DNA from: Nitrosopumilus sp.
Lineage (GTDB): Bacteria > Desulfobacterota > Binatia > UBA1149 > SPBQ01
Length of the DNA stretch: 64,000 nt
Reading direction: 5' to 3'
Assembly: GCA_964225545.1 (NCBI GenBank)
Contig: CAXQPB010000198.1
Location: 39,452 to 103,451, forward strand
Part shown: positions 16,385 to 61,757 of the stretch, in pieces
Layout of the letters: each line of letters opens with the position of its first letter
Numbering within the stretch: position 1 is the first letter of the stretch
The notes under the pieces: model-generated
What the model saw: the letters and a program-made list of their open reading frames with translations, nothing else
What the model was told of the DNA's origin: nothing
Database searches by the model: none
Made by a program: the position numbers and the translations under genes

Positions 16385-16614
16385 GATGGGCTGGTTCTGT
16401 AGCGCACGCGCGGACCCATCTCCACGTCCGCCACGCCTTCGGTGCATTCGGGTCGTCGGGCCAAGCGCACGGCGCACGCAACGCCTGCCGCAGCGGGCGT
16501 CAGCGATCCGCCGCTGGTACCCGCAGCGTTTCGAAGATATCTGGCACCGTTTACCGCGTCGCGGCCGGATCCATCAGCCGCAACTCAAGCAGAAACCGAG
16601 AGGAGAATAGAAAA

Positions 16615-17046: not shown

Positions 17047-17094
17047 ACTCCGAGTCTTGCCTTGGAGTCGCGACTCCAAGGCAAGACTCGGAGT
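17047..17094. repeat. 48-nt zero-loop palindromic junction between the two convergent copies of the Cys-rich protein gene
   Basis: actccgagtcttgccttggagtcg followed directly by its reverse complement, 24 nt after the TAA stop at 17044-17046. Confidence 0.9.
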
Positions 17095-17526: not shown

Positions 17527-17756
17527 TTTTCTATTCTCCTCTCGGTTTCTGCTTGAGTTGCGGCTGATGGATCCGGCCGCGACGCGGTAAACGGTGCCAG
17601 ATATCTTCGAAACGCTGCGGGTACCAGCGGCGGATCGCTGACGCCCGCTGCGGCAGGCGTTGCGTGCGCCGTGCGCTTGGCCCGACGACCCGAATGCACC
17701 GAAGGCGTGGCGGACGTGGAGATGGGTCCGCGCGTGCGCTACAGAACCAGCCCATC

Positions 17757-18578: not shown

Positions 18579-19432
18579 GGCCGCCGCGGCGAATCGCGGC
18601 GACGCTCATCTCGATCTGCGTTTGCGTGCCGATGTCGGCTCGCGCTTCACCGATCGATCCGATCAGCCCGGACCGGCCGGGGGTCGTCAACCCGCCGACC
18701 GTGGTCGGCGTCGGCTTTTTGCAGATCGAGGCCGGCCTCACGCATCAGGGCCGGGGCGGCGTCGATCTCGGGACCGCTGAGAGCGGTGCGCCCGGCGAGC
18801 GTGGCCTGGTCGTCCCGGAACTGGAGGTCCGGCTCGGCGTTCATCCGCGCGTCGAGGTCGCGCTCGGTTTCTCCGGGTGGTCTGGCACCGACTTCGAAGA
18901 CGGCAACGAGGTTCGCGGGTTCTCCGATCTCGGAGTCGATCTGCGCGCCGTGCTCTGTGAACAGTTCGGCGTGCTCCCGCAGACCGCGATCGAGCTCGAT
19001 CTCAGTTTTCCCGTCGGCAGCAAGGAGATCACCAGCGGCGGCGTTGACCCGACCCTGGTTCTGCTTGGCCAGTGGACGCTCGCGCGTCGTTTCACCCTGG
19101 GGTGGAATTTCGAGGCGGCAGCTCTGAGCCGGGGGGAGGGGACCTCGGGGCGATTTTTCGAGTTCTCGCCCTCGGTCGCGATCGGTACGGGGCTCGGTGG
19201 CGGCTGGGGCGTTTTCTTCGAGTACTTCGCCAGTCTGCGATCGCGCGGAACGCCCGACATCAACGGCGTCGACGGCGGCTTTACCTATCTGGCGACGCCA
19301 AACCTCCAGTTCGATGTCAGCGCCGGGACCGGGTTCGACGCGCCTGCCACCGGCTACTTCGTTGCCGCCGGGGTCGCCTGGCGGCTGCCCCGACTCTGGT
19401 CGCCGGCTACCAGTCGGCAGGGAAGCCGGTGA
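18575..19432 (+). CDS. Mirror copy of the MetA-pathway-type OM beta-barrel channel (14709..15566)
   Basis: Identical translation; palindrome arm. Confidence 0.6.
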   Translation: MRPPRRIAATLISICVCVPMSARASPIDPISPDRPGVVNPPTVVGVGFLQIEAGLTHQGRGGVDLGTAESGAPGERGLVVPELEVRLGVHPRVEVALGFSGWSGTDFEDGNEVRGFSDLGVDLRAVLCEQFGVLPQTAIELDLSFPVGSKEITSGGVDPTLVLLGQWTLARRFTLGWNFEAAALSRGEGTSGRFFEFSPSVAIGTGLGGGWGVFFEYFASLRSRGTPDINGVDGGFTYLATPNLQFDVSAGTGFDAPATGYFVAAGVAWRLPRLWSPATSRQGSR

Positions 19433-20453
19433 ACGCTGCGGGAATGCGGCCGATGTCCTGAAGCAGCTCGCGCTGGAGACCCTCGGATGTCGAATCGTCG
19501 AAGCCGAGCGTGATGCTGTCGCTGATTCCATTGAAGCGTTGCTCCATGACAGCCGCGATCTGATCGTGGCGGCCGGCCGCGACGAATTCGTGAAGAACCT
19601 CGTCCGGGATCTCGGCTGCCATCTCCTTCCACTGTCCCTGCTTCGACATCGAGTGAAGCTTCATCCCGAGGTCTTCCCAGCCGTGTTCGGCGAGGACCCC
19701 GTGGTAGCTGCGAGTGGATCCGTAAAACGCTACGCGGTACCGGCACCACTCGAGCTGTCTGGCGACCGCCTCATCATCGGCTCCCGTGGCGATGAAGCCA
19801 CCGCCCCAGATCTCGAACGTGGATCGATCACGGCCGGCTTTTTCGAGACCTTCGTCGATTGCAGGGAGCGCGACGTTTTCCAGATAGCGGCGTGTCGCGA
19901 AACCGTGCAGACGAACGCCGTCGCAATGACGCCCCGCCATACGCATCATCGCCGGCTTGACCGCCGCGATGCTGATCGGGATCGGGCCGAGCCCGGACGG
20001 CTGCGGTGAAAACTCCGGAGTCATGAGCGTGAAATTGTAGTGCTCCCCCTGATAGTCGAGCTTCTCGCCTTTCTCCCAGCATCGCCAGATCGCTCTCAGC
20101 GCCTGGACGTATTCGCGCAGGCGCGGCAGCGGAGGGCTCCACGGAACACTGAAGCGGCGCTCGTTGTGCCCCTTGACCTGCGTCCCGAGTCCGAGGGTGA
20201 AGCGCCCCCCCGATTGAACGTGGAGGTCCCAGGCCGTGTTCGCGACGACCATCGGGCTGCGCGGGAAGCAGACGGCGATGGCGGTGCCGAGGTGAACGCG
20301 CTCCGTGGCGATGGCAGCGAGGGCCAGCGGGATGAAGGGGTCGGAGGCGATTTCGTAACTGACGAGGCCGTCGAACCCGATCGCCTCAGCGCTGCGCGCA
20401 GCCGCCTCGATCGCCCGCCAGTCGGTCATCGGTAGTCCTGTTTCTATCTTCAT
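19407..20453 (-). CDS. Mirror copy of LLM oxidoreductase (13688..14734)
   Basis: Identical translation; palindrome arm. Confidence 0.7.
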   Translation of the reverse strand: MKIETGLPMTDWRAIEAAARSAEAIGFDGLVSYEIASDPFIPLALAAIATERVHLGTAIAVCFPRSPMVVANTAWDLHVQSGGRFTLGLGTQVKGHNERRFSVPWSPPLPRLREYVQALRAIWRCWEKGEKLDYQGEHYNFTLMTPEFSPQPSGLGPIPISIAAVKPAMMRMAGRHCDGVRLHGFATRRYLENVALPAIDEGLEKAGRDRSTFEIWGGGFIATGADDEAVARQLEWCRYRVAFYGSTRSYHGVLAEHGWEDLGMKLHSMSKQGQWKEMAAEIPDEVLHEFVAAGRHDQIAAVMEQRFNGISDSITLGFDDSTSEGLQRELLQDIGRIPAAFTGFPADW

Positions 20454-20596
20454 GCCCTTTTCCCCCGTGTTCGCCTGTTCTTCGGTGCTCGCCGCGCCCG
20501 GGGGGCTTTTGCCCCGACAATTGACCGAGCGCGGGCGTCGCAATAAGACTGGTACTGCCGCCGTTTGAATAACACTGGGGGAAGTTGGGTGGAACC

Positions 20597-22075
20597 ATGC
20601 CGCGTTACTCCTACGAAAGACTTTCGGCTCAGGACAATACTTTTCTGCTGATGGAGCGCCGCAACGTGTACATGCACGTTGCAGCCACCGCGGTTTATGA
20701 GGGCGGCCCGCTCGTCGGAGAAGACGGCGGCGTGGATATCGAGGCGTTCCGGCGCGCCATCGAAGGCTTCATCCACGTCATCCCCCGCTACCGCGAAAAG
20801 CTCCGCTGGGTGCCCTACGTCGAGACGCCGGTCTGGGTCGACGATCGGCACTTCAACCTCGACTACCACATCCGTCACACCGCGCTCCCGCGGCCGGGTA
20901 CCGATGCCCAGCTGAAGAAACTCGCCGGACGCATCATGTCCCAGAAGCTCGATCGCGATCGACCGCTGTGGGAGTTCTGGGTCGTCGAGGGGCTCGAAGG
21001 CGGCAGGTTCGCGATCATCAGCAAGATCCACCACTGCATGATTGACGGCAGCGCCGGCGCCGATCTGGCCACAATCATGATGTCGCTGACACCGGAGCAC
21101 CACCTCCCCGAAGTTCACCCGTACGTGCCACGTCCTTCGCCCACCGGTGGCGAGCTGCTGCGCGATGAAGTGACGCGTATGCTCGGGTTGCCGAACGCGA
21201 TCGCCAGGGGGCTGTACGATTTCGGCAAGCATGCGGAAAGCATTCGAAGCGAACTCTTCAAGCGCAGCTCTGCGCTGGTCGAGCTGTTCGGCTACGCGAT
21301 CCGCAAGCCGTCCGAGACTCCGCTCAACGGTCGCCTCGGGCCGCATCGATGCTTCGACTGGCTCGACATGTCGCTCGAAGACGTGAAGGCGGTGCGACGC
21401 CACTACGGCTGCACGGTCAACGACCTGGTGCTCGCGACGGTATCCGGGGCGGTCCGGCAATATCTGATTCGACATCGTGTAGACGCCAACGACATCGAGT
21501 TCCGCGTATCGGCGCCGGTGAGTGTCCGGCGTGATGAAGACCGCGGCAAGCTGGGGAACCACGTCTCGAGCTGGATCGTCAAGCTGCCGATTCAGGAGAA
21601 GGATCCGGTTCGCAGGCTCGAGGCGATCCACCGGGTCACGGACGACCTCAAACGTTCCGAGCAGGCACTCGGCGTGCAGATGCTGATGGCGGCAGCGGAA
21701 TGGGCACCCGCGCAGCTGCTCTCGCTGGGTTCCCAGTCGACGAGCGGGCCGATCAACATGATCGTGACGAACGTGCCGGGCCCGCAGATTCCGCTCTACA
21801 TGCTCGGTTCACGGCTCGTCGATATGTACCCGCAGGTTCCGTTGCTCGAGAACACCGGTCTGGGTGTGGCGCTGTTCAGCTACAACGGCCGGATGTGCTG
21901 GGGCTTCAATGCAGATCCGGGCGTGGTACCGGACGCCAGCGACTTCGTTCGCATGGTACGGGCGTCCTTCGTCGAGCTGGCGAACGCGGCCGGGATCAAG
22001 CTCGGGGCCGAGCCCAGGGTGATCCGAAATCCCGCCGCTCAGACTCAGTCCGATGACGGCCGGCTGGGTTCCTAG
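20597..22075 (+). CDS. Mirror copy of WS/DGAT acyltransferase (12066..13544)
   Basis: Identical translation with the HHCMIDG motif. Confidence 0.8.
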   Translation: MPRYSYERLSAQDNTFLLMERRNVYMHVAATAVYEGGPLVGEDGGVDIEAFRRAIEGFIHVIPRYREKLRWVPYVETPVWVDDRHFNLDYHIRHTALPRPGTDAQLKKLAGRIMSQKLDRDRPLWEFWVVEGLEGGRFAIISKIHHCMIDGSAGADLATIMMSLTPEHHLPEVHPYVPRPSPTGGELLRDEVTRMLGLPNAIARGLYDFGKHAESIRSELFKRSSALVELFGYAIRKPSETPLNGRLGPHRCFDWLDMSLEDVKAVRRHYGCTVNDLVLATVSGAVRQYLIRHRVDANDIEFRVSAPVSVRRDEDRGKLGNHVSSWIVKLPIQEKDPVRRLEAIHRVTDDLKRSEQALGVQMLMAAAEWAPAQLLSLGSQSTSGPINMIVTNVPGPQIPLYMLGSRLVDMYPQVPLLENTGLGVALFSYNGRMCWGFNADPGVVPDASDFVRMVRASFVELANAAGIKLGAEPRVIRNPAAQTQSDDGRLGS

Positions 22076-22161
22076 CCCGAGGCGCATGCAGCGCCGATGA
22101 ACGCGGCCTCGAACAACGGCCGCGGGAGGGCCTGAGCGCCGAGGCGTGACGGCCCGACTTC

Positions 22162-23373
22162 GTGTTGACGATCGCGATGCTGTGGGACGCGCTGCTGGGT
22201 GGCGGCGCGCAGCACGAGAGCGTGCCATCGGTACGTCGCGATACGTCGATGCTCGCCAAGATCCTCCTCGATGAGGGGCTGCTCCGAGCGATGTCCGGGT
22301 CGACCGGCTTCTGGGCCCATTCGGACCGGCTCGATCGAACCGTACGAAACGAAGTCTCGCGCGGTATCGATTTTTACGGCGAGCGTGGTTGGCTCGATGA
22401 CCCCGCCGCCTACCACCGAGAGCCGCCGGTACTCGCGGATCCGGACATCGAGAGTGTCTTCGGGCTGATCCCTTACGAGCAGCTGAGCTTCGAGAGCGGA
22501 TACACGCCTGCAGTCGGTGAGCCCGGACGACGGCGGTGGATGGGGTATCGCGAGAATCGACGCGCTCACGCGTGGATGTTGCGTCATGCCGATCACTCGC
22601 GCCCATGGATGATCGCGTTGCACGGCTACGGGATGGGGTCGCCGCTCGCCGATCTCGGTGGGATGCGCGCGCGCTACCTCCATCACGCGCTCGGACTGAA
22701 CGTTCTGTCCTACGTCATGCCGCTGCATGGGCCGCGACGGGTCGGGCGCGGATACGGCAGCGAGCTGTTCAGCGGAGGCGTCTCAAATCTGATCCACGGT
22801 GAAGCGCAGGCGATGTGGGACCTGCGCCGAATCATTTCGTGGATTCGGGGTACGCAGGGAGCCGACCGTGTCGCGGTCCACGGTGTCTCGCTCGGCGGGT
22901 ACACGACAGCGCTGCTTTCGGCTCTCGAACCCGATCTTGCCTGTGCCGTCGCCGGTATACCGGCCTCCTGTTTCGTTGAGCTGTTCCGTCAGCACTCCGA
23001 TCGAGTGAGCGGTATCGATCCGGACCGGATGGATGCGTTCTGGGAGCAGACTCGACGGCTTCTGACTGTGGTGTCCCCGCTCAGCATGCAGCCGCGGATC
23101 CCGCGCGAGAGACGATATATTTTTGCAGCGGTTGCCGACCGGCTGGCGCCGCCGGGATCGGCGATGGCGCTCTGGGAACACTGGGAACGACCGCGCATCG
23201 TCTGGTACCAGGGGTCGCATGTCTCGTTCGTCTTCGAGAACGATGTTCGTGAACTTCTCGACGCAGCCATGCTGGAGTCGGGAATGATCGAGAGCGGATG
23301 GGATCCGGCGCGCGGCGGGTTGCCGTGGAGCTCGGAACTGGCGTCGTGGTTTCCTCGGTTTTCCTCGCGCTGA
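22162..23373 (+). CDS. Mirror copy of alpha/beta hydrolase (10768..11979)
   Basis: Identical translation. Confidence 0.65.
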   Translation: MLTIAMLWDALLGGGAQHESVPSVRRDTSMLAKILLDEGLLRAMSGSTGFWAHSDRLDRTVRNEVSRGIDFYGERGWLDDPAAYHREPPVLADPDIESVFGLIPYEQLSFESGYTPAVGEPGRRRWMGYRENRRAHAWMLRHADHSRPWMIALHGYGMGSPLADLGGMRARYLHHALGLNVLSYVMPLHGPRRVGRGYGSELFSGGVSNLIHGEAQAMWDLRRIISWIRGTQGADRVAVHGVSLGGYTTALLSALEPDLACAVAGIPASCFVELFRQHSDRVSGIDPDRMDAFWEQTRRLLTVVSPLSMQPRIPRERRYIFAAVADRLAPPGSAMALWEHWERPRIVWYQGSHVSFVFENDVRELLDAAMLESGMIESGWDPARGGLPWSSELASWFPRFSSR

Positions 23374-24587
23374 GCCTGATCGGCCTGACCTTCACTCTGA
23401 CGACGCTGATCCCGCAGCGACGTCAGAACTGGGCGTCGATCCCACGCTTCTTCGCCTCCTGGCTGACCGGCGAGCTCGCTCTGTACCATATCGCCTGGCA
23501 GGCGGCTGCCACGGCGGGGTTCGTTGCTTACGGAGCTCTCGAGCAGCCTGCGGGTGTCGCCGGTCTCGTCATCACGCTGCTGTCGTGGGCCGGTCTCTGC
23601 GTTGCGCTCAAGCACTCGCGTGCCGCGTCTGGAGTCACTGAATCCGCGCTGCGGGAGACACTGGGTACCGGGTATGCGGGAGATTCCGCAAAGCCCGGCG
23701 AACCGGAGCCCGTCCCGATCGCACGCCTGTTGCTGCCGTTCCGGATGCGGCACCCGGACATCGTTGTCGAGCGGGACGTTGCCTACGGTGATGCGGGGAA
23801 GCGTAATCTCCTCGATATCTACCGGCCGCGAGAATCCGACGGGCGCTGTCCTGTTCTTCTGCAGATTCACGGCGGAGGCTGGGTGATCGGCAACAAGGAG
23901 GAGCAGGGCGGCCCGCTCATGCGCTACCTGGCCGCGCGCGGCTGGTGTTGTTTCGCGATCAATTACCGACTCAGCCCTGACGCGGTCTGGCCGGACCATT
24001 TGATCGACTGCAAGAAAGCCCTCGCGTGGATCCGCGAGCACGCCGCCCCGTACGGAGCTGACCCCGGCCTCGTGGTGGTGACCGGCGGCTCGGCCGGTGG
24101 TCATCTCTCCTCGATGATGGCGCTTACGCAGGGCCGGGCGGAATTCCAGCCCGGCTTCGAAGATGCGGACACATCGGTGGCAGCGTGCGTACCGTTCTAC
24201 GGGGTTTACGATTTTCTCGGACGCGGCGGCGGCGGCAACTCCGGCAATTCGATGGAGCCGTTTCTCGAGCGCTATGTTCTCAAATGTTCACCGGTCGACC
24301 AGCGGGCGGTCTGGGAGGGGGCCTCGCCGATCGATCAGGTCGGGCCGGCCGCGCCACCGTTTTACGTGATCCACGGGACGCACGATGCTCTCGCATCGGT
24401 CGATGGCGCTCGCGGTTTCGTCGAAAAGCTCAGATCGGTGTCGGCAGCGCCCGTCGTCTACGCTGAGCTCCCCGGTGGCCAACACGCGTTCGAGGTGTTT
24501 CACTCCATTCGCACCGAATACGTCGTGCGTTCGGTCTGGCGTTTCGTCGAGCACATCCGCACATCCCGAACTCCGACATTCTCCTGA
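23298..24587 (+). CDS. Mirror copy of the membrane-anchored fold-3 esterase (9554..10843)
   Basis: Identical translation; same start-site uncertainty. Confidence 0.7.
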   Translation: MGSGARRVAVELGTGVVVSSVFLALSLIGLTFTLTTLIPQRRQNWASIPRFFASWLTGELALYHIAWQAAATAGFVAYGALEQPAGVAGLVITLLSWAGLCVALKHSRAASGVTESALRETLGTGYAGDSAKPGEPEPVPIARLLLPFRMRHPDIVVERDVAYGDAGKRNLLDIYRPRESDGRCPVLLQIHGGGWVIGNKEEQGGPLMRYLAARGWCCFAINYRLSPDAVWPDHLIDCKKALAWIREHAAPYGADPGLVVVTGGSAGGHLSSMMALTQGRAEFQPGFEDADTSVAACVPFYGVYDFLGRGGGGNSGNSMEPFLERYVLKCSPVDQRAVWEGASPIDQVGPAAPPFYVIHGTHDALASVDGARGFVEKLRSVSAAPVVYAELPGGQHAFEVFHSIRTEYVVRSVWRFVEHIRTSRTPTFS

Positions 24588-24679
24588 GGTTCCGAATTGT
24601 TGAAAAAGTCTCTGGATTCGAGCCCCCGCGGACTCGTATGGTCACATGCTATTCATTGGTTCCGGGGGGGGAACGTCGA

Positions 24680-25120
24680 ATGAAGTATCGCGTTGGGTCC
24701 GCGCCGCAGTCGAAGCTGCGTGGGATTGGTAACTCAGTTTCAGGCTTTCTTCGCTCCGCGCTGAAGATCTCCCTGCTCACTCTGCTCGCCCTGTTCGCAC
24801 TGCCGGCTCTGCCGTCTGTTCTGGCCCCGGGCCAGGCTGCCTGTGCACAGCTCCTGGCCGGCGACTCGCCGCTGTACCTCGACAGGGGCACCGGAGAGTT
24901 GACGGCCGAGAAGCCGGAAGGCGAATCGCTGACGCTGAGCCCGCTTGAGATCGAAATGCTCAGTACATCGTCGGCCGGTCTGACAGTGTCGCGTCGAAGC
25001 GACGCGGTGGTCGTCGATCTTCAGGGGCGCTTCGGACACCTCGCGACCGCCACGATTGCACCGGACGGACGCTTGAAGACCCACTGCGCCGACCCGGTCG
25101 CGTCAGGCGCGTCGCAATGA
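24680..25120 (+). CDS. Mirror copy of the small secreted protein (9021..9461)
   Basis: Identical translation. Confidence 0.5.
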   Translation: MKYRVGSAPQSKLRGIGNSVSGFLRSALKISLLTLLALFALPALPSVLAPGQAACAQLLAGDSPLYLDRGTGELTAEKPEGESLTLSPLEIEMLSTSSAGLTVSRRSDAVVVDLQGRFGHLATATIAPDGRLKTHCADPVASGASQ

Positions 25121-27060
25121 TGGCCGCGCGCGAGAGGTGTTCAGTTCCGGTTCGCCGCAGCCGACCGCCGGCTTTGCGTGCGGCGGCCTGGCCGGTCGTG
25201 GTGAGTATCGGGTTGCTCCACGGTGTTGATATCGCCAGTGCAGCTGATGTGTCGGTTCTTTACGTCAACCCGACAGACGGTTTCGCTTCTGAGTTGCCTG
25301 CCGACCCGAGCTCGACGGCGCCGGGCGACACGCTCGGACAGCAGCGCAAGGCGTCGATGGAGGCGGCTGCGAACGAGTGGGGAACTCGTCTGGACAGCAA
25401 TATCCCTGTCTCGATGGACGTCCAGATGGTCGCGATGAGCTGCAACGCCGGCTCGGCGGTGCTCGGCGGCGCGAGCGTACGGACCGTCGCCCGCGACTGG
25501 GTGCCGGCAGCGGGCGGCGTCGATGCGCCTCACGCCTCGACGTGGTATCCGGCCGCGCTCGCGAACCGCTTGGCGAATACTGACCTCATGTCGAACACGT
25601 CCGATCTGCAGGCCGCCTTCAACGAGAGTATCGATAACAACGACTCCTGTCTGCAAGGCGCGAACTGGTACTACAGCGTCGGGCCCGAGGAAGGGCCTTC
25701 TGGAACGATCTCGTTCTACCGCACCGTGCTGCACGAGATCGCACACGGGATCGGGTTCACCTCGCTCGTCGATCCGTCGACCGGGGCGCTGTTTTTCGAT
25801 CTGATCGACAGCTACGCGCGAAACCTCAGCGATGCGGACAGCGGTCTCGGTTGGGAGGAGATGAGCAACCAGCAGCGGGCCGCGTCCGTTGTTGATTCCG
25901 GCAACCTCGTATGGTCGGGCGCCGCCGTGACCGCCGGGTCAGGAATTCTCACATCAGGTCTGACCGACGGGAAGGTTCGTATGTATGCGCCTGACCCGGT
26001 GCGCAGCGGATCGTCGGTTTCCCACTTCGACACCGCCTTCTCGGCGGGCGGCACGGACGAGCTCATGGAACCGTTCGCTTCCCCGCAGTCCGAGATTCTA
26101 CTGACCGGACAACTCCTTGCGGACATCGGCTGGGGCGCACAATGCGGTGACGGTGTCGTCGAGGGCAACGAGAGCTGTGATGACGGGAACGGTGCAGCCG
26201 GTGACGGATGTTCGTCTGTCTGCTCTGTCGAGGAATGTCATTCATGCGACCAGGGGGCGCCGAGCGATTGCACGCCCCTGACAGGGACCCCGTGCTCCGA
26301 TGAGATCGGTTGTACCACCGAGCAGTGCGACGTCGGCGTCTGCCTGTCCGATGCACAAGCCTGCACCCTCGACGTCTTCAAATTCTACCGCGCCAAGCGC
26401 GGCCGGATCGGGGAGCCGTTCGTACCCACCGATGTCGAACTGATCGATGCTCTGGACTCGCGATCGACCCATGTTTCCAAGGTCCATGCGGTCGGCAATC
26501 CGGCATCGCGCGACGGCGTCGAGGCGGCCATCCCGGAGGCGCACGCGGTCTGTTACAAGATCAAGGATTCGACCACGGCTGCGCCGCAGCCGAAGTTCCA
26601 GGCGACATCGGTGCAGATCTCTCATGCATTCGGCAGCGAGTCTCTGCAGATCCTCAAACCGGAGACGCTTTGTATGCCGTCGTCGAGTTCGGCATCAGGG
26701 GCGCCGCCGGCGCTGGCTTCCGGATTGCTCGACGCATTCAAGTGCTACCGTGCCAAACGCGCTGCGGGTTCGCCGAAGCTGGAGCGCCGCACCGTCACAC
26801 TCGTGGATGACTTCGAGCAGAAGCAGACTGTGGTAATCGGACCAAGTGCTTTCTGCGTGCCGGTCGCGGTGAACGGGATCGAGCCGAGCGAACCGAACGA
26901 GTTCCTGCAGTGCTTCAAGGTCAAGGACGCGAAGACGACACCGAAACAGGACAAGTTCGCCGGAGCTGATCTTTACGTTCGGGATGCGTTCGGCCCGAAG
27001 AGCCTCCGGGCCAGCAAGACATTCCGCGTTTGTATCCCCGCTGTCGCCGGCGCGACCTGA
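25117..27060 (+). CDS. Mirror copy of the HExxH metallopeptidase-like secreted protein (7081..9024)
   Basis: Identical 647-aa translation. Confidence 0.6.
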   Translation: MMAARERCSVPVRRSRPPALRAAAWPVVVSIGLLHGVDIASAADVSVLYVNPTDGFASELPADPSSTAPGDTLGQQRKASMEAAANEWGTRLDSNIPVSMDVQMVAMSCNAGSAVLGGASVRTVARDWVPAAGGVDAPHASTWYPAALANRLANTDLMSNTSDLQAAFNESIDNNDSCLQGANWYYSVGPEEGPSGTISFYRTVLHEIAHGIGFTSLVDPSTGALFFDLIDSYARNLSDADSGLGWEEMSNQQRAASVVDSGNLVWSGAAVTAGSGILTSGLTDGKVRMYAPDPVRSGSSVSHFDTAFSAGGTDELMEPFASPQSEILLTGQLLADIGWGAQCGDGVVEGNESCDDGNGAAGDGCSSVCSVEECHSCDQGAPSDCTPLTGTPCSDEIGCTTEQCDVGVCLSDAQACTLDVFKFYRAKRGRIGEPFVPTDVELIDALDSRSTHVSKVHAVGNPASRDGVEAAIPEAHAVCYKIKDSTTAAPQPKFQATSVQISHAFGSESLQILKPETLCMPSSSSASGAPPALASGLLDAFKCYRAKRAAGSPKLERRTVTLVDDFEQKQTVVIGPSAFCVPVAVNGIEPSEPNEFLQCFKVKDAKTTPKQDKFAGADLYVRDAFGPKSLRASKTFRVCIPAVAGAT

Positions 27061-27111
27061 GCGCCGACCGAGCGCCCGTCCGCGTTGCGCGGATCGGTCG
27101 GCTGTCCCGGC

Positions 27112-27936
27112 TCAGGGTTCGCGATCGTGCGGGGGTACCTCGCTGAAATCCGGGTCGCGCTTCTCGAAGAACGCGGTTACCGCTTCGATGTTCTCGGCGC
27201 TGCCGATGCGACCGACGAAGGCGGCGTCCTCTCGTCGCCGTGCTGCATCGACCTGTTCGCGCCGAGTCGCCAGAACCAGTCGTTTCGTGTGTCGAAGCGA
27301 GCCGAGCGGCTTCGCGGCGAGGTGTTGGGCGCGGCGGCTTGCAACGGCCAGCACTTCTTCGGGCTCGCACAGGTCGGTCGCGATCCCGAGCTCGACGGAT
27401 CGTTCCGCGCTGATGAAATCGGATTCGAACAGAAGGTCGATCGCGTTGCGATAACCGATGACTGCGGGGAACAGGTAACTGCTCGCGGCTTCCGGAACCA
27501 CGCCGAGGGTCACGAATGGCGCCCGGAGGCGCGAGCCACGAGCGATGCAGGCGTAGTCGCAATGAAGCAGCAGTGTGATCCCGATGCCGACCCCGACCCC
27601 GTTGACCGCCGCGATCAGCGGCTTGTCGAAGTCGCAGAGCACATCCATGAAGAGTGAAAAACCGTTGTCTTGACCCGATGCGTCGTCGGAGTCGGAGCCC
27701 GGTGAAAGGTTGCTCATCTCTGCGAGGTCCTGACCGGCCGAGAAGGCTCCCCCGGCGCCCGTGATGACCACGGCTCGGACGCGATCGTCGGCAAGCGCGT
27801 CCTCAAGGCTTTCCCGGGCGTCCCGCCACATCGCGGCATTGAAGGCGTTCTTGTGACGAGGGCGGTTCAGGGTCACGGTGAGCACTCCGCCCTCGATCGT
27901 TTCTAGAACGGTCTCGCGTTTCTTTTCATCGGTCAT
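27112..27936 (-). CDS. Mirror copy of enoyl-CoA hydratase/isomerase (6205..7029)
   Basis: Identical translation. Confidence 0.8.
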   Translation of the reverse strand: MTDEKKRETVLETIEGGVLTVTLNRPRHKNAFNAAMWRDARESLEDALADDRVRAVVITGAGGAFSAGQDLAEMSNLSPGSDSDDASGQDNGFSLFMDVLCDFDKPLIAAVNGVGVGIGITLLLHCDYACIARGSRLRAPFVTLGVVPEAASSYLFPAVIGYRNAIDLLFESDFISAERSVELGIATDLCEPEEVLAVASRRAQHLAAKPLGSLRHTKRLVLATRREQVDAARRREDAAFVGRIGSAENIEAVTAFFEKRDPDFSEVPPHDREP

Positions 27937-28096
27937 GACGGGCTTTTTTTCAGCCCAGGAAAATCAGTGCAAGTGCTGTCTGTGTCGGATACGACTCGTG
28001 GTGGCGTCGAACCCGAACATGGACTAAAACGATGTATGCCGGTTTGCCCGCCTGATCCTTCTGCACAAGGGGCGCCCGGTCTGGAGGGATCGCTTC

Positions 28097-29416
28097 GTGT
28101 TACCCGAGATTCGTTCTTTTGGTGCGCACCTGCGCGTTTCGCTTTTCGCTGTCACGTTCTTTTCGCTCGCGTTTCACATCGCGCCGTACGCTGCATCCGC
28201 CGAGGTGAAACCCGGCGAGATCATCACCAAGAAGAACCTCGAGAAGGTTCGCGGACTCGTCCCCGAGGGGGTCCTGTGGTGCGTTGAGAACGGAATGGAC
28301 ATGGAGATCGTACCGTATGGAAAGATCTCTGTGCCTGCCGACTACCAGGAGGCGACCGAGAAGTACTCCGCGCAGGTCAAGCTCGGAGAGAACGCCGAGC
28401 TCGAAAACTGGATCGCAGGTCTCCCGTTCCCGGACATCGATTCGAACGACCCGCATGCGGCCACCAAGATCATGTACAACTTCCAGCGTACCCACTACTT
28501 CACGGAGACGCTGGATCTGAACCTGATGGACGCCGACACCGGAGCGATGGAAACCGACTCCGAGGGCAACCCCATGTATTCCGTCGAGCGGCACTTCATC
28601 CCTGAATGGTTCCGCGTGCTTCGCTTCCAGGGACGGCTTCGCAACGATCCCAAGCCCAGCATCGAACCGAACAAGGATGAGGTCTTCTACAAGGCCGGCC
28701 TGTATCCGCTGATCGAGCCGTTCGACCTCAAGGGCGTCGGCGGTATCAGTTTCCGTTATCTCGACCAGGCCAAGCACGATGACACCTGGCTGTATCTTCC
28801 TTTCGCGCGCCGTGTTCGTCGTATGTCAACGACCCAGCGAAGTGACGCGCTCTTCGGACAGGATATCGATGTAGACAGCTACGGTGGCTACGCGGGGCAG
28901 ATTCCCTGGTTCGAGTGGAAGCTGCTCGGCGAGAAGCCGATGCTCGCCTCCCTGCATGGCAAGAGACTGCCTCCGGAGCCGTGCAAGTCGGATGGCGGCA
29001 TGACGTTCTGTGAACCGTGGGAGATGCGGCCCTCGGTCTACATTGTCGAAGGCAAGTCGAAGTCCCCGAAATACGCGTTCTCCAAGCGCGTGATCTATGT
29101 CGACAAAGAGGCGAACATCATTCCGTATTCCGACCTCTACGATCCCGGCGGCGAGCTGTGGAAGACGGTCATCCTGAGTTTCCGAGTGTCGAACCGGCCC
29201 AACCCCAAAGTCGACTTCGAGTACCCGGAGGAGCGTATGTTCGCCTACGCGTACTCGGTGATCGATATCCAGCTGCAGCACAGCACGCGCGTGGCGATTC
29301 CCGGGCTGGCCTTCCAGAACGAGCCGGGCTGGTATCTGGATCTCGGGTTCGATCACCCTTCGTCGGTCGCCGAGGACTGGTACAGCGTTCAGTCACTGAT
29401 CGCGGGCGGGCGATGA
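28097..29416 (+). CDS. Mirror copy of the DUF1329 protein (4725..6044)
   Basis: Identical translation. Confidence 0.6.
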   Translation: MLPEIRSFGAHLRVSLFAVTFFSLAFHIAPYAASAEVKPGEIITKKNLEKVRGLVPEGVLWCVENGMDMEIVPYGKISVPADYQEATEKYSAQVKLGENAELENWIAGLPFPDIDSNDPHAATKIMYNFQRTHYFTETLDLNLMDADTGAMETDSEGNPMYSVERHFIPEWFRVLRFQGRLRNDPKPSIEPNKDEVFYKAGLYPLIEPFDLKGVGGISFRYLDQAKHDDTWLYLPFARRVRRMSTTQRSDALFGQDIDVDSYGGYAGQIPWFEWKLLGEKPMLASLHGKRLPPEPCKSDGGMTFCEPWEMRPSVYIVEGKSKSPKYAFSKRVIYVDKEANIIPYSDLYDPGGELWKTVILSFRVSNRPNPKVDFEYPEERMFAYAYSVIDIQLQHSTRVAIPGLAFQNEPGWYLDLGFDHPSSVAEDWYSVQSLIAGGR

Positions 29417-29790
29417 GCGAAACAAAACGAGAACCTGCGGCGGAGCTTTCGCCGGACGTTCTCGCTGCCTTCGCTGCGCGCAGCGTGGACTGGCCCGTCG
29501 TGATGCTCAACATGCTGAAGTTCAAACCGGACGGCGGCCTGCGGAGCTACATTCAATACGGTCAATCCGTCCAGCCACTCATCGAAGCTGTCGGTGGAAG
29601 CATCGAGTACCAGGCGATGGCGGCGGAGTCGCTGCTCGGAGGGCAGGACTGGGACATGATCGTTCTGGTCCGTTACCCGAGCCGCGGAGACTTCCTCAAA
29701 ATGGTCGAATCGGACCAATATCAGGCGATCGCCCACCTTCGAGAGAATGCGCTCGAGCGATCCGTGCTCTACGCGACCGACCCTGTCTGA
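29413..29790 (+). CDS. Mirror copy of the DUF1330 protein (4351..4728)
   Basis: Identical translation. Confidence 0.55.
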   Translation: MSETKREPAAELSPDVLAAFAARSVDWPVVMLNMLKFKPDGGLRSYIQYGQSVQPLIEAVGGSIEYQAMAAESLLGGQDWDMIVLVRYPSRGDFLKMVESDQYQAIAHLRENALERSVLYATDPV

Positions 29791-30310
29791 AGGTCGTGCA
29801 GCTCCGACCCATGACTTCGACAGGCTTCCCTTCGAGGGTTTTCCACTCGGGGTTTTCAGTACAAAACACGAATAACGGTCGTTAAACTCGACGACTTGCT
29901 CTTTTCGTCATTGACGAGGTTCGCGTAGCCGCGTTATCGCTTCGTATGATGCCGTAGTGAGGCATCAAGAATGTCGCTCGCCCGTGCCGCATATCGGCCG
30001 CGCACAGCGAGACGACCGAAGGCAGCCCGACAAAGGTTGGTGGTTTTCGGCAACGAGCACTTGCTCGGACCTCGAGCCCTGCTTCCGGCTCGAGGTTTGC
30101 TCGCAAAACGGTTGGTCCGTGCGGTCCAACCGATGCGAGCTTGCCAGGCCGGAGTCGATGCGTCGCGTTCGTTCGGACGGCGGTGACGTGGACCCGGCCT
30201 TGCCTCGCGGTCGGTTTCGTCCACCGGCCGCGGGGCTGCGTATTGTCAGGGCTGCCGGTTCAGGAGCGTTGCGCGGAACGGCAGCTGGAATTCGTTCGAC
30301 CGACTCCGCC

Positions 30311-30769
30311 TCACGCCGGGAAGAAACGGCTGATGGTGTCGGCCACGCATGAGGGCCGGTCGTTTCCCTCCACCTCGATCGATACCCGGATGATGGCCTG
30401 GTAGGACCCTTTGATCTCATCGACCTTGACGAGCTCGGCGCCTGCACGAATCTTCGAGCCGACGGGGACCGGGGCCGGGAATCGGACCTTGTCGCATCCG
30501 TAGTTCACGCCCATGGAGACATTCTCCACGCGTACGATGCGGGGCAGGAAGTAACTGATGAGAGACAGTGTCAGGTAGCCGTGTGCGATCGTGGTCCCGA
30601 ACGGTCCCGACTTCGCAGCCTCGGGGTCGATATGGATCCACTGATGATCCCCGGTCGCGTCTGCAAACAGGTTCACGCGTTCCTGGTCTATGTCGAGCCA
30701 GTCGCTGTAGCCGAGGTGTTTCCCCACCATTTCCGGCAGCTCTGCCGGTGATCCGATCACGGTCGCCAT
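30311..30769 (-). CDS. Mirror copy of the MaoC-like hydratase (3372..3830)
   Basis: Identical translation. Confidence 0.75.
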   Translation of the reverse strand: MATVIGSPAELPEMVGKHLGYSDWLDIDQERVNLFADATGDHQWIHIDPEAAKSGPFGTTIAHGYLTLSLISYFLPRIVRVENVSMGVNYGCDKVRFPAPVPVGSKIRAGAELVKVDEIKGSYQAIIRVSIEVEGNDRPSCVADTISRFFPA

Positions 30770-30774
30770 CTTTT

Positions 30775-31563
30775 CTAATCTCCCTTTTTGCTGTTCTCGT
30801 GAGTTGCGTTGATCGCCGCGTCGAGAAACGCGGGACGCTCACCGCCGCCGTGCAGCAGCAGGTCCGCGCCGCTGACATAGGACGCCAGCGGTGAGGCCAG
30901 AAACAGACATGCGTCGCCGACGTCGTCAGGCTCGGCGAGCCGCCCGAGTGGAACGGTCGCCGAGACAGCGGCGATTCCGTCGTCGTCGCCGTAATGCAGG
31001 TGGGCCTGCTCGGTCTTCACCATTCCCGCCGTGACCGCGGTGACGCGCACCTTGGGCGCCCATTCGACCGCGAGGCTCTGCGTGAGGCTCAGCAGACCGG
31101 CCTTCGCGGCGCCGTATGCAGCCGTCCCCGGCGATGGCCTCACCGCGCTGACGCTCGCGATATTGATTATGACGCCGCCGCTTTCCTGTGACTGCATGAC
31201 CGCATTGGCCCGCTGCGCGAAGGTGAGCGGCGCGATCAGATTGAGCTGGATGATCTTCTCCGAGAAGCGCGGTGAAGCCGTTGCGGCTTCGGCAAACGGC
31301 GCTCCACCGGCATTGTTGACCAGCACGTCGAGTCGCCCGTGGCGTTCGACGGTAGCTTTGACCACAGCGGCGACCTGCTCGGGGTCTCGTACGTCGGCGG
31401 CCACGAAGGACGCGCGGCGGTTCGCGACAGCCGGAAGCTCGTCGGGTTCGTGGCGGCCGCAGATCACCACATCGGCGCCGTGTTCGAGAAAGCGGCGCGT
31501 GATACCGCGGCCGACGCCGCGCGCGCCGCCCGTAACGACGACGGCTTTGCCTGAAAAATCCAT
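30775..31563 (-). CDS. Mirror copy of SDR (2578..3366)
   Basis: Identical translation. Confidence 0.75.
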   Translation of the reverse strand: MDFSGKAVVVTGGARGVGRGITRRFLEHGADVVICGRHEPDELPAVANRRASFVAADVRDPEQVAAVVKATVERHGRLDVLVNNAGGAPFAEAATASPRFSEKIIQLNLIAPLTFAQRANAVMQSQESGGVIINIASVSAVRPSPGTAAYGAAKAGLLSLTQSLAVEWAPKVRVTAVTAGMVKTEQAHLHYGDDDGIAAVSATVPLGRLAEPDDVGDACLFLASPLASYVSGADLLLHGGGERPAFLDAAINATHENSKKGD

Positions 31564-31777
31564 GGGGTCGGAGGATCGCATCGGGGGTCGACCGCTTTGA
31601 CGGTCGGCGACGGAGCATAGGTGCCAGGCGACGTGGTCGCAACTGCCCGCCATGCAGACTGTCCTGTCCCCGTCCAGTCCCTGTCCTCTCGCTGCCTTGC
31701 CGCTGCCTCGTCGAGCGCGTATCGCAACCGGGCACGCAGGGGCCGTTCCGGCGAGCACAACCCGAGGAGGAACGATC

Positions 31778-32626
31778 ATGCTGGATCGCGATACGATCAT
31801 GTTGGAAGGAAGCACTGCCGTCGTCACCGGCGCCGGTGCCGGGATCGGGCGTGCGGTCGCCGAGAGCCTCGCCGCGCATGGTGCCTCGGTCGCCGTTGTA
31901 GACAGCGTTCCGCAACGCTCCGCCGAGGTCGCGCGCGCGATCGAAGAGCGCGGGGGCAGGGCGCTCGACGCTCCCGCGGACGTACGTGAGCGCGAAGACG
32001 TCGATCGTCTCCGTGATCGCGTCCTCGCCGAGCTCGGCGCGCCCGATATTCTGGTCAACAATGTCGGCCATTATCTCTCGGCGGGCCGCTTCGTCGATTC
32101 CCGCCACGAGGACTGGGACGCTCTGTATCGGGTGAACCTGGATCACGTCCTGACCTGCACGCACGCGTTGCTGCCTGCGATGATCGATGCCGGTCGCGGC
32201 GGCAGCATCGTCAACGTGACTACGATCGAGGCGTTTCGCGGTATACCGGGCTGCGCCGTCTACTCGGCTTTCAAGTCGGCGATCACCGGTTTCACCCGCA
32301 GCCTGGCGCTCGAGCTCGGCCCCGAGGGGATTCGTGTCAACGCGGTGGCTCCCGAGACGACCGAAACCGAGCAGGTACAGCCCAGCCGCTGGATCCCCGC
32401 CGAGCATCGTGACCGGGAACCGTACTGGATCCCCGCAGGCCGCTTCGGTCGCCCCGACGACATCGCCGGCAGCGTGCTGTTCCTCGCTTCAAAGCTTTCG
32501 GCCTGGGTGACCGGAACAACGGTCCACGTCGACGGGGGTGCGCTTGCCGCAGGGGGATTCTATCGGGTGCCCGGTGGCGGCTGGACCAACACGCCGATTG
32601 TTACAGGCTCGGGCATTCCGGGCTGA
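31778..32626 (+). CDS. Mirror copy of SDR (1515..2363)
   Basis: Identical translation. Confidence 0.75.
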   Translation: MLDRDTIMLEGSTAVVTGAGAGIGRAVAESLAAHGASVAVVDSVPQRSAEVARAIEERGGRALDAPADVREREDVDRLRDRVLAELGAPDILVNNVGHYLSAGRFVDSRHEDWDALYRVNLDHVLTCTHALLPAMIDAGRGGSIVNVTTIEAFRGIPGCAVYSAFKSAITGFTRSLALELGPEGIRVNAVAPETTETEQVQPSRWIPAEHRDREPYWIPAGRFGRPDDIAGSVLFLASKLSAWVTGTTVHVDGGALAAGGFYRVPGGGWTNTPIVTGSGIPG

Positions 32627-32649
32627 GCGGGCTATACGGGTTGTAGGGG

Positions 32650-34071
32650 CTAGCGTGACAGCGCGCGGCCGACGTCCGGGATGGACGCCTTCACGCGAAT
32701 CTCGAAGGCGGAAAGCTCGGCGAGCATCTCGTCTGTGCGTTTCGGCGCCTCGTCGGCAAGGTTGTCGAGCTCGCCTGGGTCGTTGACGATGTCGTAGAGC
32801 TCGACACTCTCCGCGCTCTGGAAACCGCCCGGCGGAACCGAAAGCCGCGCGTCACGCGGTGTACCGGCCGTCGTGTGGATCAGTTTCCAGCGTCCACGCG
32901 AGACAGAGAAGGGGTAGTTCGCCCGCGCGCCGAACCCGAACAGTGAGCGTTCGGCATCGATTCTTCCGCCGGCCAGCGCGACCGCCAGGCTGCGTCCGTC
33001 GAAGGCCTGCGGCGATGCTTCGAGACCGAGCAGCTCGACCAGCGTCGGGACGACGTCGATGGTTCCCACCGGCTCGCGGACGACCGCCCCCTCGGGCAGG
33101 CTGCCGGGCAGGGCGAAGAGCAGGGGGACGCGGACGGTCGAGTCGTAAATGAACCAACCGTGCTGGAGGTACTCGCGATGCCCCGTCAGGCTCTCGCCGT
33201 GGTCGGCGCTCAATACGACGAGCGTGCGGCGATGCAGCCGGCGTTCGCGCAGCGCCCGCATCAGCCGGCCGAGATGGTGATCGGTGTAGCGAATCTCCCC
33301 GTCGTATCGGCGCACATAATAGGAAAGCCGGTCGTGATCGTCGATCTGCTGGTAGCGCGGAATGACTCCGAGTCCGTAGTTGCCGATGGCGAGCCGTACC
33401 GCGGCGTCCTCGCCGAACCGACCGTCGGGATACTCGAAATCCTTGCTCCAATCCGGACCCGCGGATGTGAACGGGCCGTGCGGGTCCATCAGGTGCAGCC
33501 AGAGGAACCACGGGCGGCCGGCGTCGGCGGCGTCGGTTTCGCGTCCTTCGATCCACTCGATCGCGCGCGACACTCCCACCTCGTCGGATGCCTCCTCGGC
33601 GTTCTCGGTCCAGAAACCATGGAAGGAGTCGAAGCCCTGCGCGAAACCGAACCTGGCAGCCAGCAGACGATTGCCGACCAGCGCACCCGTCCGGTAGCCC
33701 GCGCGTGATGCGAGCTCGGCGATGGTGGTCGCCTCCGGCGAGAGCGGGACGACGTTGTGCCACGCGCCGTGGCGGTCGGCGTATCGCCCGGTGAGCAGCG
33801 AGGCGGTTCCGGGAGCGGTCTCCGACGCGGGCGACAGTGCGCGCTCGAAACGGACTCCTGTCGCCGCGAGCTCATCGATCATCGGGCTGGTCGGTTGGTC
33901 GTAGCCCCATGCACCGAGATGATCGGCTCGCAGCGTGTCGATCGAGACGATCAACAGGTTCGGCGGGTTGCCCTCCGGCGTTCTGAGCGGCAGCTCAGCG
34001 CTGTCGCGCGAACAGCCGCCGAGGGTCAGCGTGGTCAGGAAGGTCAGCAGGGGGAGCATGCGAGGCATCAT
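32650..34071 (-). CDS. Mirror copy of the sulfatase-like lipoprotein (70..1491)
   Basis: Identical translation. The 706-aa ORF 32650..34770 is this gene plus a spurious upstream in-frame extension; the real start is MMPRMLPLL (signal peptide + lipobox). Confidence 0.7.
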   Translation of the reverse strand: MMPRMLPLLTFLTTLTLGGCSRDSAELPLRTPEGNPPNLLIVSIDTLRADHLGAWGYDQPTSPMIDELAATGVRFERALSPASETAPGTASLLTGRYADRHGAWHNVVPLSPEATTIAELASRAGYRTGALVGNRLLAARFGFAQGFDSFHGFWTENAEEASDEVGVSRAIEWIEGRETDAADAGRPWFLWLHLMDPHGPFTSAGPDWSKDFEYPDGRFGEDAAVRLAIGNYGLGVIPRYQQIDDHDRLSYYVRRYDGEIRYTDHHLGRLMRALRERRLHRRTLVVLSADHGESLTGHREYLQHGWFIYDSTVRVPLLFALPGSLPEGAVVREPVGTIDVVPTLVELLGLEASPQAFDGRSLAVALAGGRIDAERSLFGFGARANYPFSVSRGRWKLIHTTAGTPRDARLSVPPGGFQSAESVELYDIVNDPGELDNLADEAPKRTDEMLAELSAFEIRVKASIPDVGRALSR

Positions 34072-34214
34072 GTTCCTGCCCGGCAGTGCGAACCGGCCCG
34101 TCGCCTTCGAGTGGCTTCCGGCCCCGGCGGCCCGTGGTGACGGTTCGCACCGCGCTGCCGGCGGTTCCGCGCTGTACCCCGCGCAGGCCCCTCGGCTGTC
34201 GTCCGGCGAGAGGA

Positions 34215-60543: not shown

Positions 60544-60635
60544 GTCTTGGCGGCCGCTTGGCATCAAAGCAGGCCGCTGTAGTCTCGACAGCAGCAGGCG
60601 CGTCCCGCCTGCGCAGTCCAGAGGAGGATAGAACG

Positions 60636-60977
60636 ATGGCAAAGAAAGCTGACTGGTATTACCACCGCAAAGGTTGAACGTCCTGCACTCGAGCGTCCAA
60701 GTTCCTGGACGCCAACGGCATCGAACCGAAAGAGACCGTTTCCGCGTCGGCAAAGCTCGGCAAGAAGGAAGCGGCGGAGATGGCGAAGGCCGCGACCCGC
60801 GTGATCGTGGCCAAGGGCAAGAAAGTCGATGACTTCAAGCCCGGCGGCAAAGCGCCGGCCGAGGTCGTGACGGCGATGCTCGGACCGCCAGGCAATCTTC
60901 GGGCTCCGACCCTGCGCGTCGGCAAGACCGTGCTCGTCGGTTTCAACGACGAGGCCTACTCGATGGTATTCGGCTGA
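60636..60977 (+). CDS. Spx/ArsC-family (arsenate-reductase-like thioredoxin fold) protein with in-frame TGA at codon 14; putative selenoprotein with U-x-x-C redox motif
   Basis: Strong RBS GAGGAGGA 8 nt before ATG 60636. Translation MAKKADWYYHRKG-[TGA 60675..60677]-TSCTRASKFLDANGIEP...LVGFNDEAYSMVFG. The TGA aligns with the first Cys of the Spx/ArsC C-T-S-C-R-K-A motif. Downstream 65-aa ORF 60780..60977 is the in-frame C-terminal part. Confidence 0.6.
60693..60712 (+). promoter_or_regulatory. Candidate bacterial SECIS-like hairpin downstream of the in-frame UGA
   Basis: GCGUCC-AAGUUCCU-GGACGC hairpin starting 16 nt 3' of the UGA. Loop contains GUU. Confidence 0.3.
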
Positions 60978-60996
60978 GCGCCATGAAGTTCTGACA

Positions 60997-61032
60997 GCGG
61001 CTGCGCAGGCCGGCTCCGGCCTGCGCAGCCGC
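60997..61032 (+). terminator. Strong GC hairpin (17-bp perfect stem, 2-nt loop) after the Spx-like gene; no U-tract
   Basis: gcggctgcgcaggccgg-ct-ccggcctgcgcagccgc, starting 20 nt after the stop. Confidence 0.35.
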
Positions 61033-61190
61033 GCCGGGCTCGGCGCCCGAGGCGTCGCACGGCGTCGATACCGCGCCCTCTCGCTGCACGCGGTTACGCA
61101 CAGACGTCGCCGCAGTCACTACGCGCCGGACCCCCACGCTGGACAATTTTGAGCCGGTGTTCCTCGCCGCGCGTTGCCGCGCAGAAAAAC

Positions 61191-61209
61191 AAAAACGTTT
61201 TTGATCAAA
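61191..61209 (+). promoter_or_regulatory. AT-rich island with two overlapping perfect palindromes (AAAAACGTTTTT and TTTGATCAAA) upstream of the collagen-like gene
   Basis: Seen directly. Located about 45 nt upstream of the GAGGAGG RBS in an otherwise ~68% GC region. Confidence 0.3.
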
Positions 61210-61253
61210 GGTTTTCCGTTCTCGCTCGTCTGTTTGAAGAAGAGGAGGCGGAG

Positions 61254-61757
61254 TTGAGAGGGTCGGCAGTTGTCGCGGCGCTCGCACTTGTTCTCGCGAG
61301 TTCCGCTCTATTCCTGCTCGCACGCAGGCATTTCGTATTCCAGGGACCGCCGGGACCGGCAGGTCAGACCGGACCTCCGGGAGTCGCAGGCCCCGCAGGC
61401 CCCGCAGGCCCCGCGGGTCCGGCAGGGCCTCCGGGACCTCCGGGACCTCCGGGACCTCCGGGACTTGCGGCAGTTTCGGAGCATGCCGCTGATCCGATGG
61501 CCGGCGCGCCCACTGCGGCGTCGTCGGCACAGGGTGGTTCAGCGCGATTTTCCACATGCGTCCGCCGAGAGCGCGAACAGACCGAGGCTTCCGGCGATGG
61601 TCTGATCGTCGTACCCTGTCACGACGGGGAGACGGCGGTCTCGGCCGGCAGCACCGCCGAGGCGTACCAGATGTTTCCCAGCGCGGACTTGAGTTCGTGG
61701 TCTTTCCGGCTGGCAGACTGCTGCGCGAACGTGATGTACGTCGTCTGCTGCGGCTGA
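61254..61757 (+). CDS. Membrane-anchored collagen-like (Gly-X-Y) repeat protein with Cys-rich C-terminus ending CCG
   Basis: Putative TTG start with GAGGAGG RBS. N-terminal TM/signal anchor ([19 protein letters not shown]). 14 uninterrupted G-X-Y triplets ([42 protein letters not shown]) at 61344..61469. C-terminus ...[13 protein letters not shown]. Confidence 0.55.
61344..61469 (+). repeat. Collagen-like triplet repeat region with 9-nt tandem repeats (gcaggcccc x3, cctccggga x4)
   Basis: Direct reading of the sequence. Confidence 0.8.

Follow-up and report, generated by a model that had tools for sequence, protein, structure and literature searches.

Reading frame and annotation of the locus

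Within the window, by which we mean the whole 64-kb stretch of DNA that was analyzed, a coding sequence containing an in-frame TGA was found on the plus strand at 60636..60977, flanked by a gene for an F420/LLM-type oxidoreductase and by an ORF with collagen-like repeats, in a region rich in lipid catabolism genes. A Shine-Dalgarno sequence read from the DNA, GAGGAGGA (60621..60628, plus strand), is separated by a 7-nt spacer from the ATG at 60636. The coding sequence terminates with TGA at 60975..60977 and encodes an ArsC-family (seleno)protein of 113 residues, including selenocysteine (Sec) as residue 14. The UGA assigned to Sec (60675..60677, plus strand) takes the first position of the motif U-T-S-C, and the last residue of this motif, Cys17 (TGC, 60684..60686, plus strand), aligns with Cys13 of Spx and would be the resolving cysteine of the UxxC center. 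Translation reads DWYYHRKG up to the UGA and TSCTRASKFLD after it and stays open through to 60975..60977, giving the product MAKKADWYYHRKG-U-TSCTRASKFLD...LGPPGNLRAP...VGFNDEAYSMVFG. A preliminary description of this DNA had named a ribosome-binding site of the GAGGAGGA type, the ATG, the TGA as 14th codon, and a single frame on both sides of it, all of which were confirmed from the sequence; the 113-residue product that it called normal in length agrees with a family length of about 113 amino acids.

The sole conventional ORF at the locus is one of 65 amino acids that starts at 60780 (M49). It had been dismissed in the preliminary description as an alternative lacking the redox motif; the ORF does exist and is the version called publicly, and its product would lack strand β1 as well as the motif. 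Public gene callers annotate this 65-amino-acid fragment here (P0026 and the genes in the sister assemblies L084 to L086) and elsewhere report C-terminal fragments of 90 to 99 amino acids for relatives of the gene; since the callers treat the Sec codon as a stop, database entries for the relatives are fragments of 65 to 99 amino acids. UGA otherwise acts as an ordinary stop and ends both this gene and its upstream neighbor, so recoding must depend on context. The practical value of the finding lies mainly in annotation correction, since the gene and hundreds of its relatives are stored as "hypothetical" fragments.

Two repeats flank the gene. At 61000..61030, 23 nt past the stop codon, is a perfect inverted repeat of 14 nt (GCTGCGCAGGCCGG..CCGGCCTGCGCAGC) that has no T-run, and a related GC-rich repeat (GCAGGCG..CGCCTGC) lies just before the ribosome-binding site at about 60596..60616. 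Both may be terminator-like or REP-like elements.

Family assignment

Profile searches, in which Sec was replaced by Cys in the query, assigned the protein to the NCBIfam family NF041106, "ArsC_rel_Se_1, ArsC family (seleno)protein", with 114.9 bits (cutoff, 85 bits; E = 2.5e-33) and a match that spans profile positions 2 to 107 of 107. Besides the score, the gene has in common with this family the length of about 113 amino acids, a U/C-x-x-C motif near the N terminus (here U14-T-S-C17), the signature LGPTGNLRAP, and a TGA followed by a hairpin; nothing material sets it apart, the window allele having Pro for Thr at residue 85. Other models of the superfamily scored below their thresholds: Pfam ArsC (PF03960) with 19.3 bits against a gathering threshold of 24 (E = 0.0014), Pfam Glutaredoxin (PF00462) with 17.2 bits against 22.9 and over residues 8 to 33 only, Spx/MgsR (TIGR01617) with 23.3 bits against 75.05, the SpxA equivalog models with 15 to 18 bits against cutoffs of 123 to 159, and the Uxx-star family (NF041212) with 17.1 bits against 66. 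The ArsC equivalog TIGR00014 was absent among the NCBIfam matches at an E value of 1 or less. With PF03960 under its gathering threshold and no TIGR00014 match, the protein therefore falls within the superfamily and is not ArsC proper.

Selenocysteine families of ArsC-like type were already reported in 2006 (PMC1794560), and the Global Ocean Sampling (GOS) survey of 2008 listed an "Arsenate reductase 2, UxxC" family, for which it counted 42 sequences with Sec and 238 with Cys (PMC2398784). Judged from motif and annotation, NF041106 is probably this family of the GOS selenoproteome (PMC2398784). NF041106 also appears in a review of the prokaryotic selenoproteome as "Arsenate reductase-like protein, UxxC"; according to this review, almost every family of the kind has been recognized through bioinformatics only and still lacks functional characterization (PMC13188914). 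In an exhaustive search, 495 representative clusters were found at an E value of 0.001 or less and 73 at 1e-10 or less; the family is modest in size and widespread in marine and sediment bacteria. As NF041106 is catalogued already, the gene adds little novelty.

The UGA codon in relatives of the gene

A protein search returned 811 relatives, and most of the best 120 are 90 to 99 amino acids long and start just past the position of the TGA. A genome scan confirmed 568 relatives, and among the best 80 loci, which were kept, every one has TGA at the same codon. The hosts of these 80 loci comprise Myxococcota, "Candidatus Binatia", Acidobacteriota (Marinacidobacterales), Gammaproteobacteria, Spirochaetales, "Candidatus Eisenbacteria", and metagenome-assembled genomes of Opitutales. 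A further locus, L087, likewise has TGA at the Sec codon. Two distant copies of the Sec form were seen per genome in three cases: L041 and L051 (OZ253507.1), L054 and L056 (CBDANW01), and L028 and L047 (JAHEEJ01).

Through the neighboring LLM oxidoreductase, three independent sister assemblies were found (L084 to L086; NCBI GCA_041257185.1, ENA ERZ28772220, and Logan SRR36426605) that are 99.7 to 99.9% identical to the window and have the same TGA and hairpin. Over 60580..60990 they match the window except at base 60888. Could the TGA be a sequencing or assembly error for TGC or TGT? The contig does contain a probably artifactual perfect palindrome of 34 kb and the base difference at 60888 that is unique to it, yet the TGA stands in GCA_041257185.1, ERZ28772220, and SRR36426605 and in all relatives. 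The same TGA in three independent assemblies excludes a sequencing error, and we regard the probability of this explanation as vanishingly small.

Base 60888 falls in the family signature LGP(T)GNLRAP (residues 82 to 91; 60879..60908, plus strand), a nearly invariant motif within which the cis-Pro loop of the thioredoxin fold likely lies. At this base, C is present in the window (CCA, Pro85) and A in the three sister assemblies (ACA, Thr85). In the family alignment, 90% or more of the members have Thr85 (LGPTGNLRAP), and 23 contigs were found to carry the Thr variant, against 1 with Pro. Either the strain itself differs at residue 85 or the assembly is in error there; if real, the substitution Thr85Pro might impair this allele.

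Among the relatives examined, genuine full-length Cys forms are limited to P0001, P0003, and P0067, and in each the Cys stands exactly in the column of the TGA. The alignment of orthologues that the preliminary description had proposed for comparing Cys with Sec thus gave TGA in the best 80 of 568 loci and Cys in these three proteins. Close Cys homologues without the hairpin had been named there as grounds for abandoning the selenoprotein reading, and the opposite was found: all 80 of the closest loci have the TGA and a conserved hairpin. On the upstream side, the residues W, Y, R, and G at positions -7, -5, -3, and -1 relative to the TGA are 100% conserved as amino acids and are encoded by two to four synonymous codons each, and 68 of 81 family loci have a start codon 13 codons before the TGA. 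Invariant residues with synonymous variation, together with the shared start, indicate that translation runs from the peptide before the UGA into the remainder of the protein. On the downstream side, Cys17 is 100% conserved and is encoded by TGC in some loci and TGT in others. The locus accordingly shows the pattern by which selenoprotein genes are recognized, an in-frame UGA set against Cys in homologues, with both flanks conserved.

These comparisons bear on two further explanations. According to the first, an ArsC-like gene of the Cys type has been inactivated by a nonsense mutation, the TGA, and has no functional product, as might be suggested by the 65-amino-acid fragment that is all gene callers report and by the Thr85Pro change of the window allele in an invariant motif. 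Against such a pseudogene stand the same TGA in all of the best 80 diverse loci, in the three sister assemblies, and in L087, the purifying selection on both flanks, and the intact ribosome-binding site and start codon; that nonsense mutations arose independently at one codon in every lineage is not credible. The comparative data effectively refute this reading, which we consider extremely unlikely.

According to the second, the UGA ends a leader peptide of 13 residues, the functional product starts downstream (65 amino acids here and about 90 to 99 elsewhere), and the hairpin is a regulatory element or attenuator. In-frame downstream start codons are indeed present and are used by the gene callers, but they differ by species (MSC.., MRAS.., MDAN.., and LDAN.., with M49 here), and a product begun at them would be without β1 and the redox motif. 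Moreover, the upstream peptide aligns residue for residue with the full-length Cys homologues, and its W, Y, R, and G are invariant. A leader peptide is therefore, in our estimate, an extremely improbable explanation of the UGA.

A SECIS-like hairpin downstream of the UGA

A SECIS-like hairpin was found at 60693..60712 on the plus strand, with the 5' arm GCGUCCA at 60693..60699, the loop AGUUCC at 60700..60705, and the 3' arm UGGACGC at 60706..60712. It has 7 bp and a predicted energy of -10.9 kcal/mol, and its first nucleotide is the 16th after the UGA (positions +19 to +38). The preliminary description had given it as a GCGUCC/GGACGC hairpin with a GUU-containing loop 16 nt after the UGA; position and loop were borne out, and the stem proved to be 7 bp long instead of 6 bp. 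The hairpin's apical loop has the conserved G that is known from bacterial SECIS elements (PMC1794560, PMC2398784). Like the SECIS element of the Escherichia coli fdhF type, it lies inside the coding sequence, directly 3' of the UGA, and carries G(U) in the apical loop; unlike it, it has an unrelated sequence, a 7-bp stem with a 6-nt loop, the stem being separated from the UGA by 15 nt, and no evident bulged U. Neither a gathering-threshold Rfam scan of the window nor a permissive scan of 60600..60800 matched any RNA family, SECIS included; the coverage of bacterial SECIS elements in Rfam is poor.

Taken by itself, the 71-nt segment has no significant structure (z = -0.98). Of random positions in the window, only 0.8% are followed, within the same range of distances, by a perfect 7-bp hairpin. 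Comparison was made in an ungapped alignment of 78 loci (75 distinct sequences). The helix formed by columns 19 to 25 with columns 32 to 38 was paired in 97.1% of cells, against 26 to 35% when the 3' arm was slid by 1 to 3 columns, and RNAalifold found the same helix in the alignment. Compensatory changes were seen in 11 cells: at one pair, 5 sequences have U-A for G-C, and at another, 6 have C-G or A-U for G-C. This level of covariation was reached in 0 of 500 shuffles; it rests on 2 of the 7 pairs because much of the hairpin is invariant, with 3 of the 7 pairs never varying in sequences that are related and protein coding. In the loop, whose consensus is the 6-nt RGUUYN, G27, U28, and U29 are invariant. 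On this comparative evidence, the hairpin is highly nonrandom.

The codons of the hairpin are constrained in a corresponding way. Ser at +7 is TCC in 73 of 73 sequences, although TCC accounts for 17% of the Ser codons elsewhere in these genes; Lys at +8 is AAG in 73 of 73, although AAA accounts for 25% of the Lys codons elsewhere in them; and the Leu codon at +10 always ends in G. Some of the compensations alter the protein (Ala to Ser together with Ala to Asp, and GCG to GCC together with Asp to Glu), and base-pair compensations that change the protein indicate selection on the RNA. Those amino acid changes are apparently driven by base pairing. Dual coding is thus neatly illustrated by the A-S-K-F-L-D-A codons, on which the protein and the SECIS RNA each impose constraints.

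DNA of Cys-form genes, available as a negative control for two genes only, gave hairpins of -4.0 kcal/mol (L081) and -5.9 kcal/mol (L083), against a mean of -10.1 kcal/mol. The stem of L081 has a C·A mismatch, and that of L083 has C·A and G·G mismatches along with an altered loop. Degraded hairpins of this kind in Cys forms resemble remnant SECIS structures (PMC1794560).

The hairpin also bears on the possibility that the UGA is read as Trp, Cys, or Gly, by near-cognate suppression or under an altered genetic code. One public pipeline did put W at this codon in P0006 (a JGI call at 1501..1851 of L087, and the fourth full-length call besides the three Cys forms), but in that call the Sec TGA and the terminal TGA were both rendered as Trp, so that a true stop was read through as well. 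The apparent variant with Trp at the Sec position was rejected as an artifact of a TGA translated with the wrong table. The genetic code here is standard, given that TGA ends this gene and its neighbor; the position is occupied by Cys in homologues and lies inside the redox motif; and the hairpin is conserved, with an invariant GU in its loop and the distance expected of a SECIS element. We consider decoding as another amino acid very unlikely.

The selenoprotein reading of the preliminary description is supported by the NF041106 score above cutoff, the TGA in 80 of the 80 best relatives, and the covarying hairpin, and the gene is a real selenoprotein gene of the catalogued family NF041106.

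Protein fold and proposed mechanism

An AlphaFold model was made on the Cys orthologue P0001, which is 65% identical to the window protein (pLDDT, 94.8; pTM, 0.87). In this model, β1 (residues 5 to 10) is followed by a helix at residues 15 to 26, with C14 and C17 at the N terminus of helix α1, and C/U14-x-x-C17 occupies the classic active-site position of the thioredoxin fold. The best Foldseek matches in the PDB were Spx (6gho; E = 2e-4, TM score, 0.54), the ArsC-related 3gkx, and YffB (1rw1), followed by glutaredoxins, all with 15 to 22% identity. The top matches of a sequence search of the PDB, TALE-repeat proteins, were rejected, as they consist of summed stretches of less than 6 bits, each with an E value above 100.

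Spx/MgsR (TIGR01617; 1z3e, 3gfk, and 6gho) is the best structural match (Foldseek E = 2e-4, TM scores of 0.49 to 0.55). Its N-terminal C-x-x-C aligns with U14-x-x-C17, since in the profile alignment C17 falls on Spx C13, which puts U14 at Spx C10, and both families contain the motifs ..LxRxP.. and ..VG(F/Y)N... The identity is, however, 18 to 22%; the window family has a 4-residue deletion at the E-D-G52-T loop of Spx and is shorter by about 18 residues at the C terminus, stopping near residue 113 of the 131 in Spx, so that the Spx tail is missing. The Gly52 loop presumably contacts the α-CTD of RNA polymerase in Spx, and the C-terminal tail of Spx serves in proteolytic control.

With ArsC, the glutaredoxin-coupled arsenate reductase of the R773 type (PF03960, TIGR00014), and YffB (1rw1), the protein shares the thioredoxin-like α/β fold, a weak similarity in the C-terminal half (E = 0.006 for YffB and 0.0014 for Pfam ArsC), and structural likeness (TM scores of 0.56 for 1rw1 and 0.59 for 3f0i). 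It differs from ArsC in its score of 19.3 bits, below the gathering threshold, and in that no ars genes lie nearby here. True ArsC proteins use a single Cys and an Arg triad and are not of the dithiol UxxC type. Glutaredoxin-like selenoproteins (Grx-like UxxC; NF041212) resemble it in the thioredoxin fold, in Sec as the first residue of the α1 motif, in small size, and in a SECIS element immediately 3' of the UGA, but the window family has an extra helical insert at about residues 37 to 52 that is typical of ArsC and Spx. Of the assignment to a Spx/ArsC-family thioredoxin-fold protein in the preliminary description, the superfamily fold stands, whereas Spx and ArsC proper are remote, with scores below cutoff and TM scores of about 0.5.

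In our interpretation, which we hold with high confidence, ORF 60636..60977 encodes an NF041106 protein in which the UGA at codon 14 is decoded as Sec, with the hairpin as its SECIS element and U14-x-x-C17 as its center. The ORF would yield a thioredoxin-fold protein of 113 residues that belongs to the ArsC/Spx/glutaredoxin-like superfamily. The hairpin in the A-S-K-F-L-D-A codons would act as a bacterial SECIS element and, by analogy with E. coli, would bring SelB·GTP·Sec-tRNA(Sec) to a ribosome that has paused on this UGA. The selenolate of the product may then attack an oxidized substrate, a disulfide or similar, after which a selenenylsulfide would form between Sec14 and Cys17 and be re-reduced by the thiol system of the cell. 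From the fold model, the Foldseek matches, and the profile alignment with Spx, we infer that the product is a selenol/thiol oxidoreductase and neither a Spx regulator nor a bona fide arsenate reductase, a function deduced solely from fold and motif.

A selenium-based redox switch, that is, a Spx-like sensor in which the selenenylsulfide state controls partner binding in place of catalysis, has a slim chance of being correct. The best structural neighbors are Spx proteins and no conserved metabolic operon partner accompanies the gene, which would suit such a role, but the G52 loop and the C-terminal tail of Spx are both missing. If true, the protein would be a selenoprotein regulator; to our knowledge, that class has not been described in bacteria.

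Selenocysteine machinery in the searched DNA

The absence of sel genes from the window, noted in the preliminary description, holds for the searches made (ARAGORN, Rfam, NCBIfam on 26 ORFs, and Pfam for 49.5 to 64 kb). ARAGORN found no tRNA in the 64-kb window and no tRNA-Sec in 47 related loci. No family of the Sec machinery was found among the 26 window ORFs scanned with NCBIfam, and no Sec-machinery gene was found in the precomputed Pfam annotation for 49.5 to 64 kb. When 1.3 Mb of related DNA was scanned with active-site motifs of SelD and SelA, no credible match was obtained. The locus itself is indirect evidence that the host, a Myxococcota-like lineage, uses selenocysteine; the closest relatives of the gene and a TIGR02232 repeat elsewhere in the window both fit a Myxococcota origin of the contig.

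Eight other TGA-interrupted candidates in the window were rejected as consecutive genes that share a frame by chance or as weak ORFs. A 97-nt tRNA-Thr(agt) predicted 3' of the gene in L066 (10355..10451) was rejected as well; the sequence consists of GC-rich units of about 17 nt in tandem (..GTGCGTCGGC..) and has no match in Rfam.

Gene neighborhood and other features of the window

Clustering of ORFs from 84 loci revealed no conserved partner gene within 5 kb on either side of the gene. The largest neighborhood "clusters" were rejected, being alternate-frame shadows of the gene itself. The Cys-form loci L081, L082, and L083 have a common order of an aldehyde dehydrogenase gene, the gene itself, and genes for a VTT/DedA-domain protein, a SprT-like protein, and a luciferase-like oxidoreductase. 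On the sister contig L084, genes matching VTT_dom and Aldedh lie 7 to 9 kb downstream.

The downstream ORF at 61149..61757 (plus strand) encodes a collagen-like run of G-P-A and G-P-P triplets, and several overlapping ORFs on both strands there reflect this repeat. The first part of the window, 1..34140, is a perfect palindrome whose arms (1..17070 and 17071..34140) are 100% reverse complementary without a spacer. This 34-kb palindrome is probably an assembly foldback artifact, and owing to it the unique sequence in the window amounts to only about 47 kb. An ORF at 25117..27057 (plus strand), mirrored in the other arm of the palindrome, contains the Cys-rich repeat TIGR02232 ("myxo_disulf_rpt") and a metalloprotease domain.
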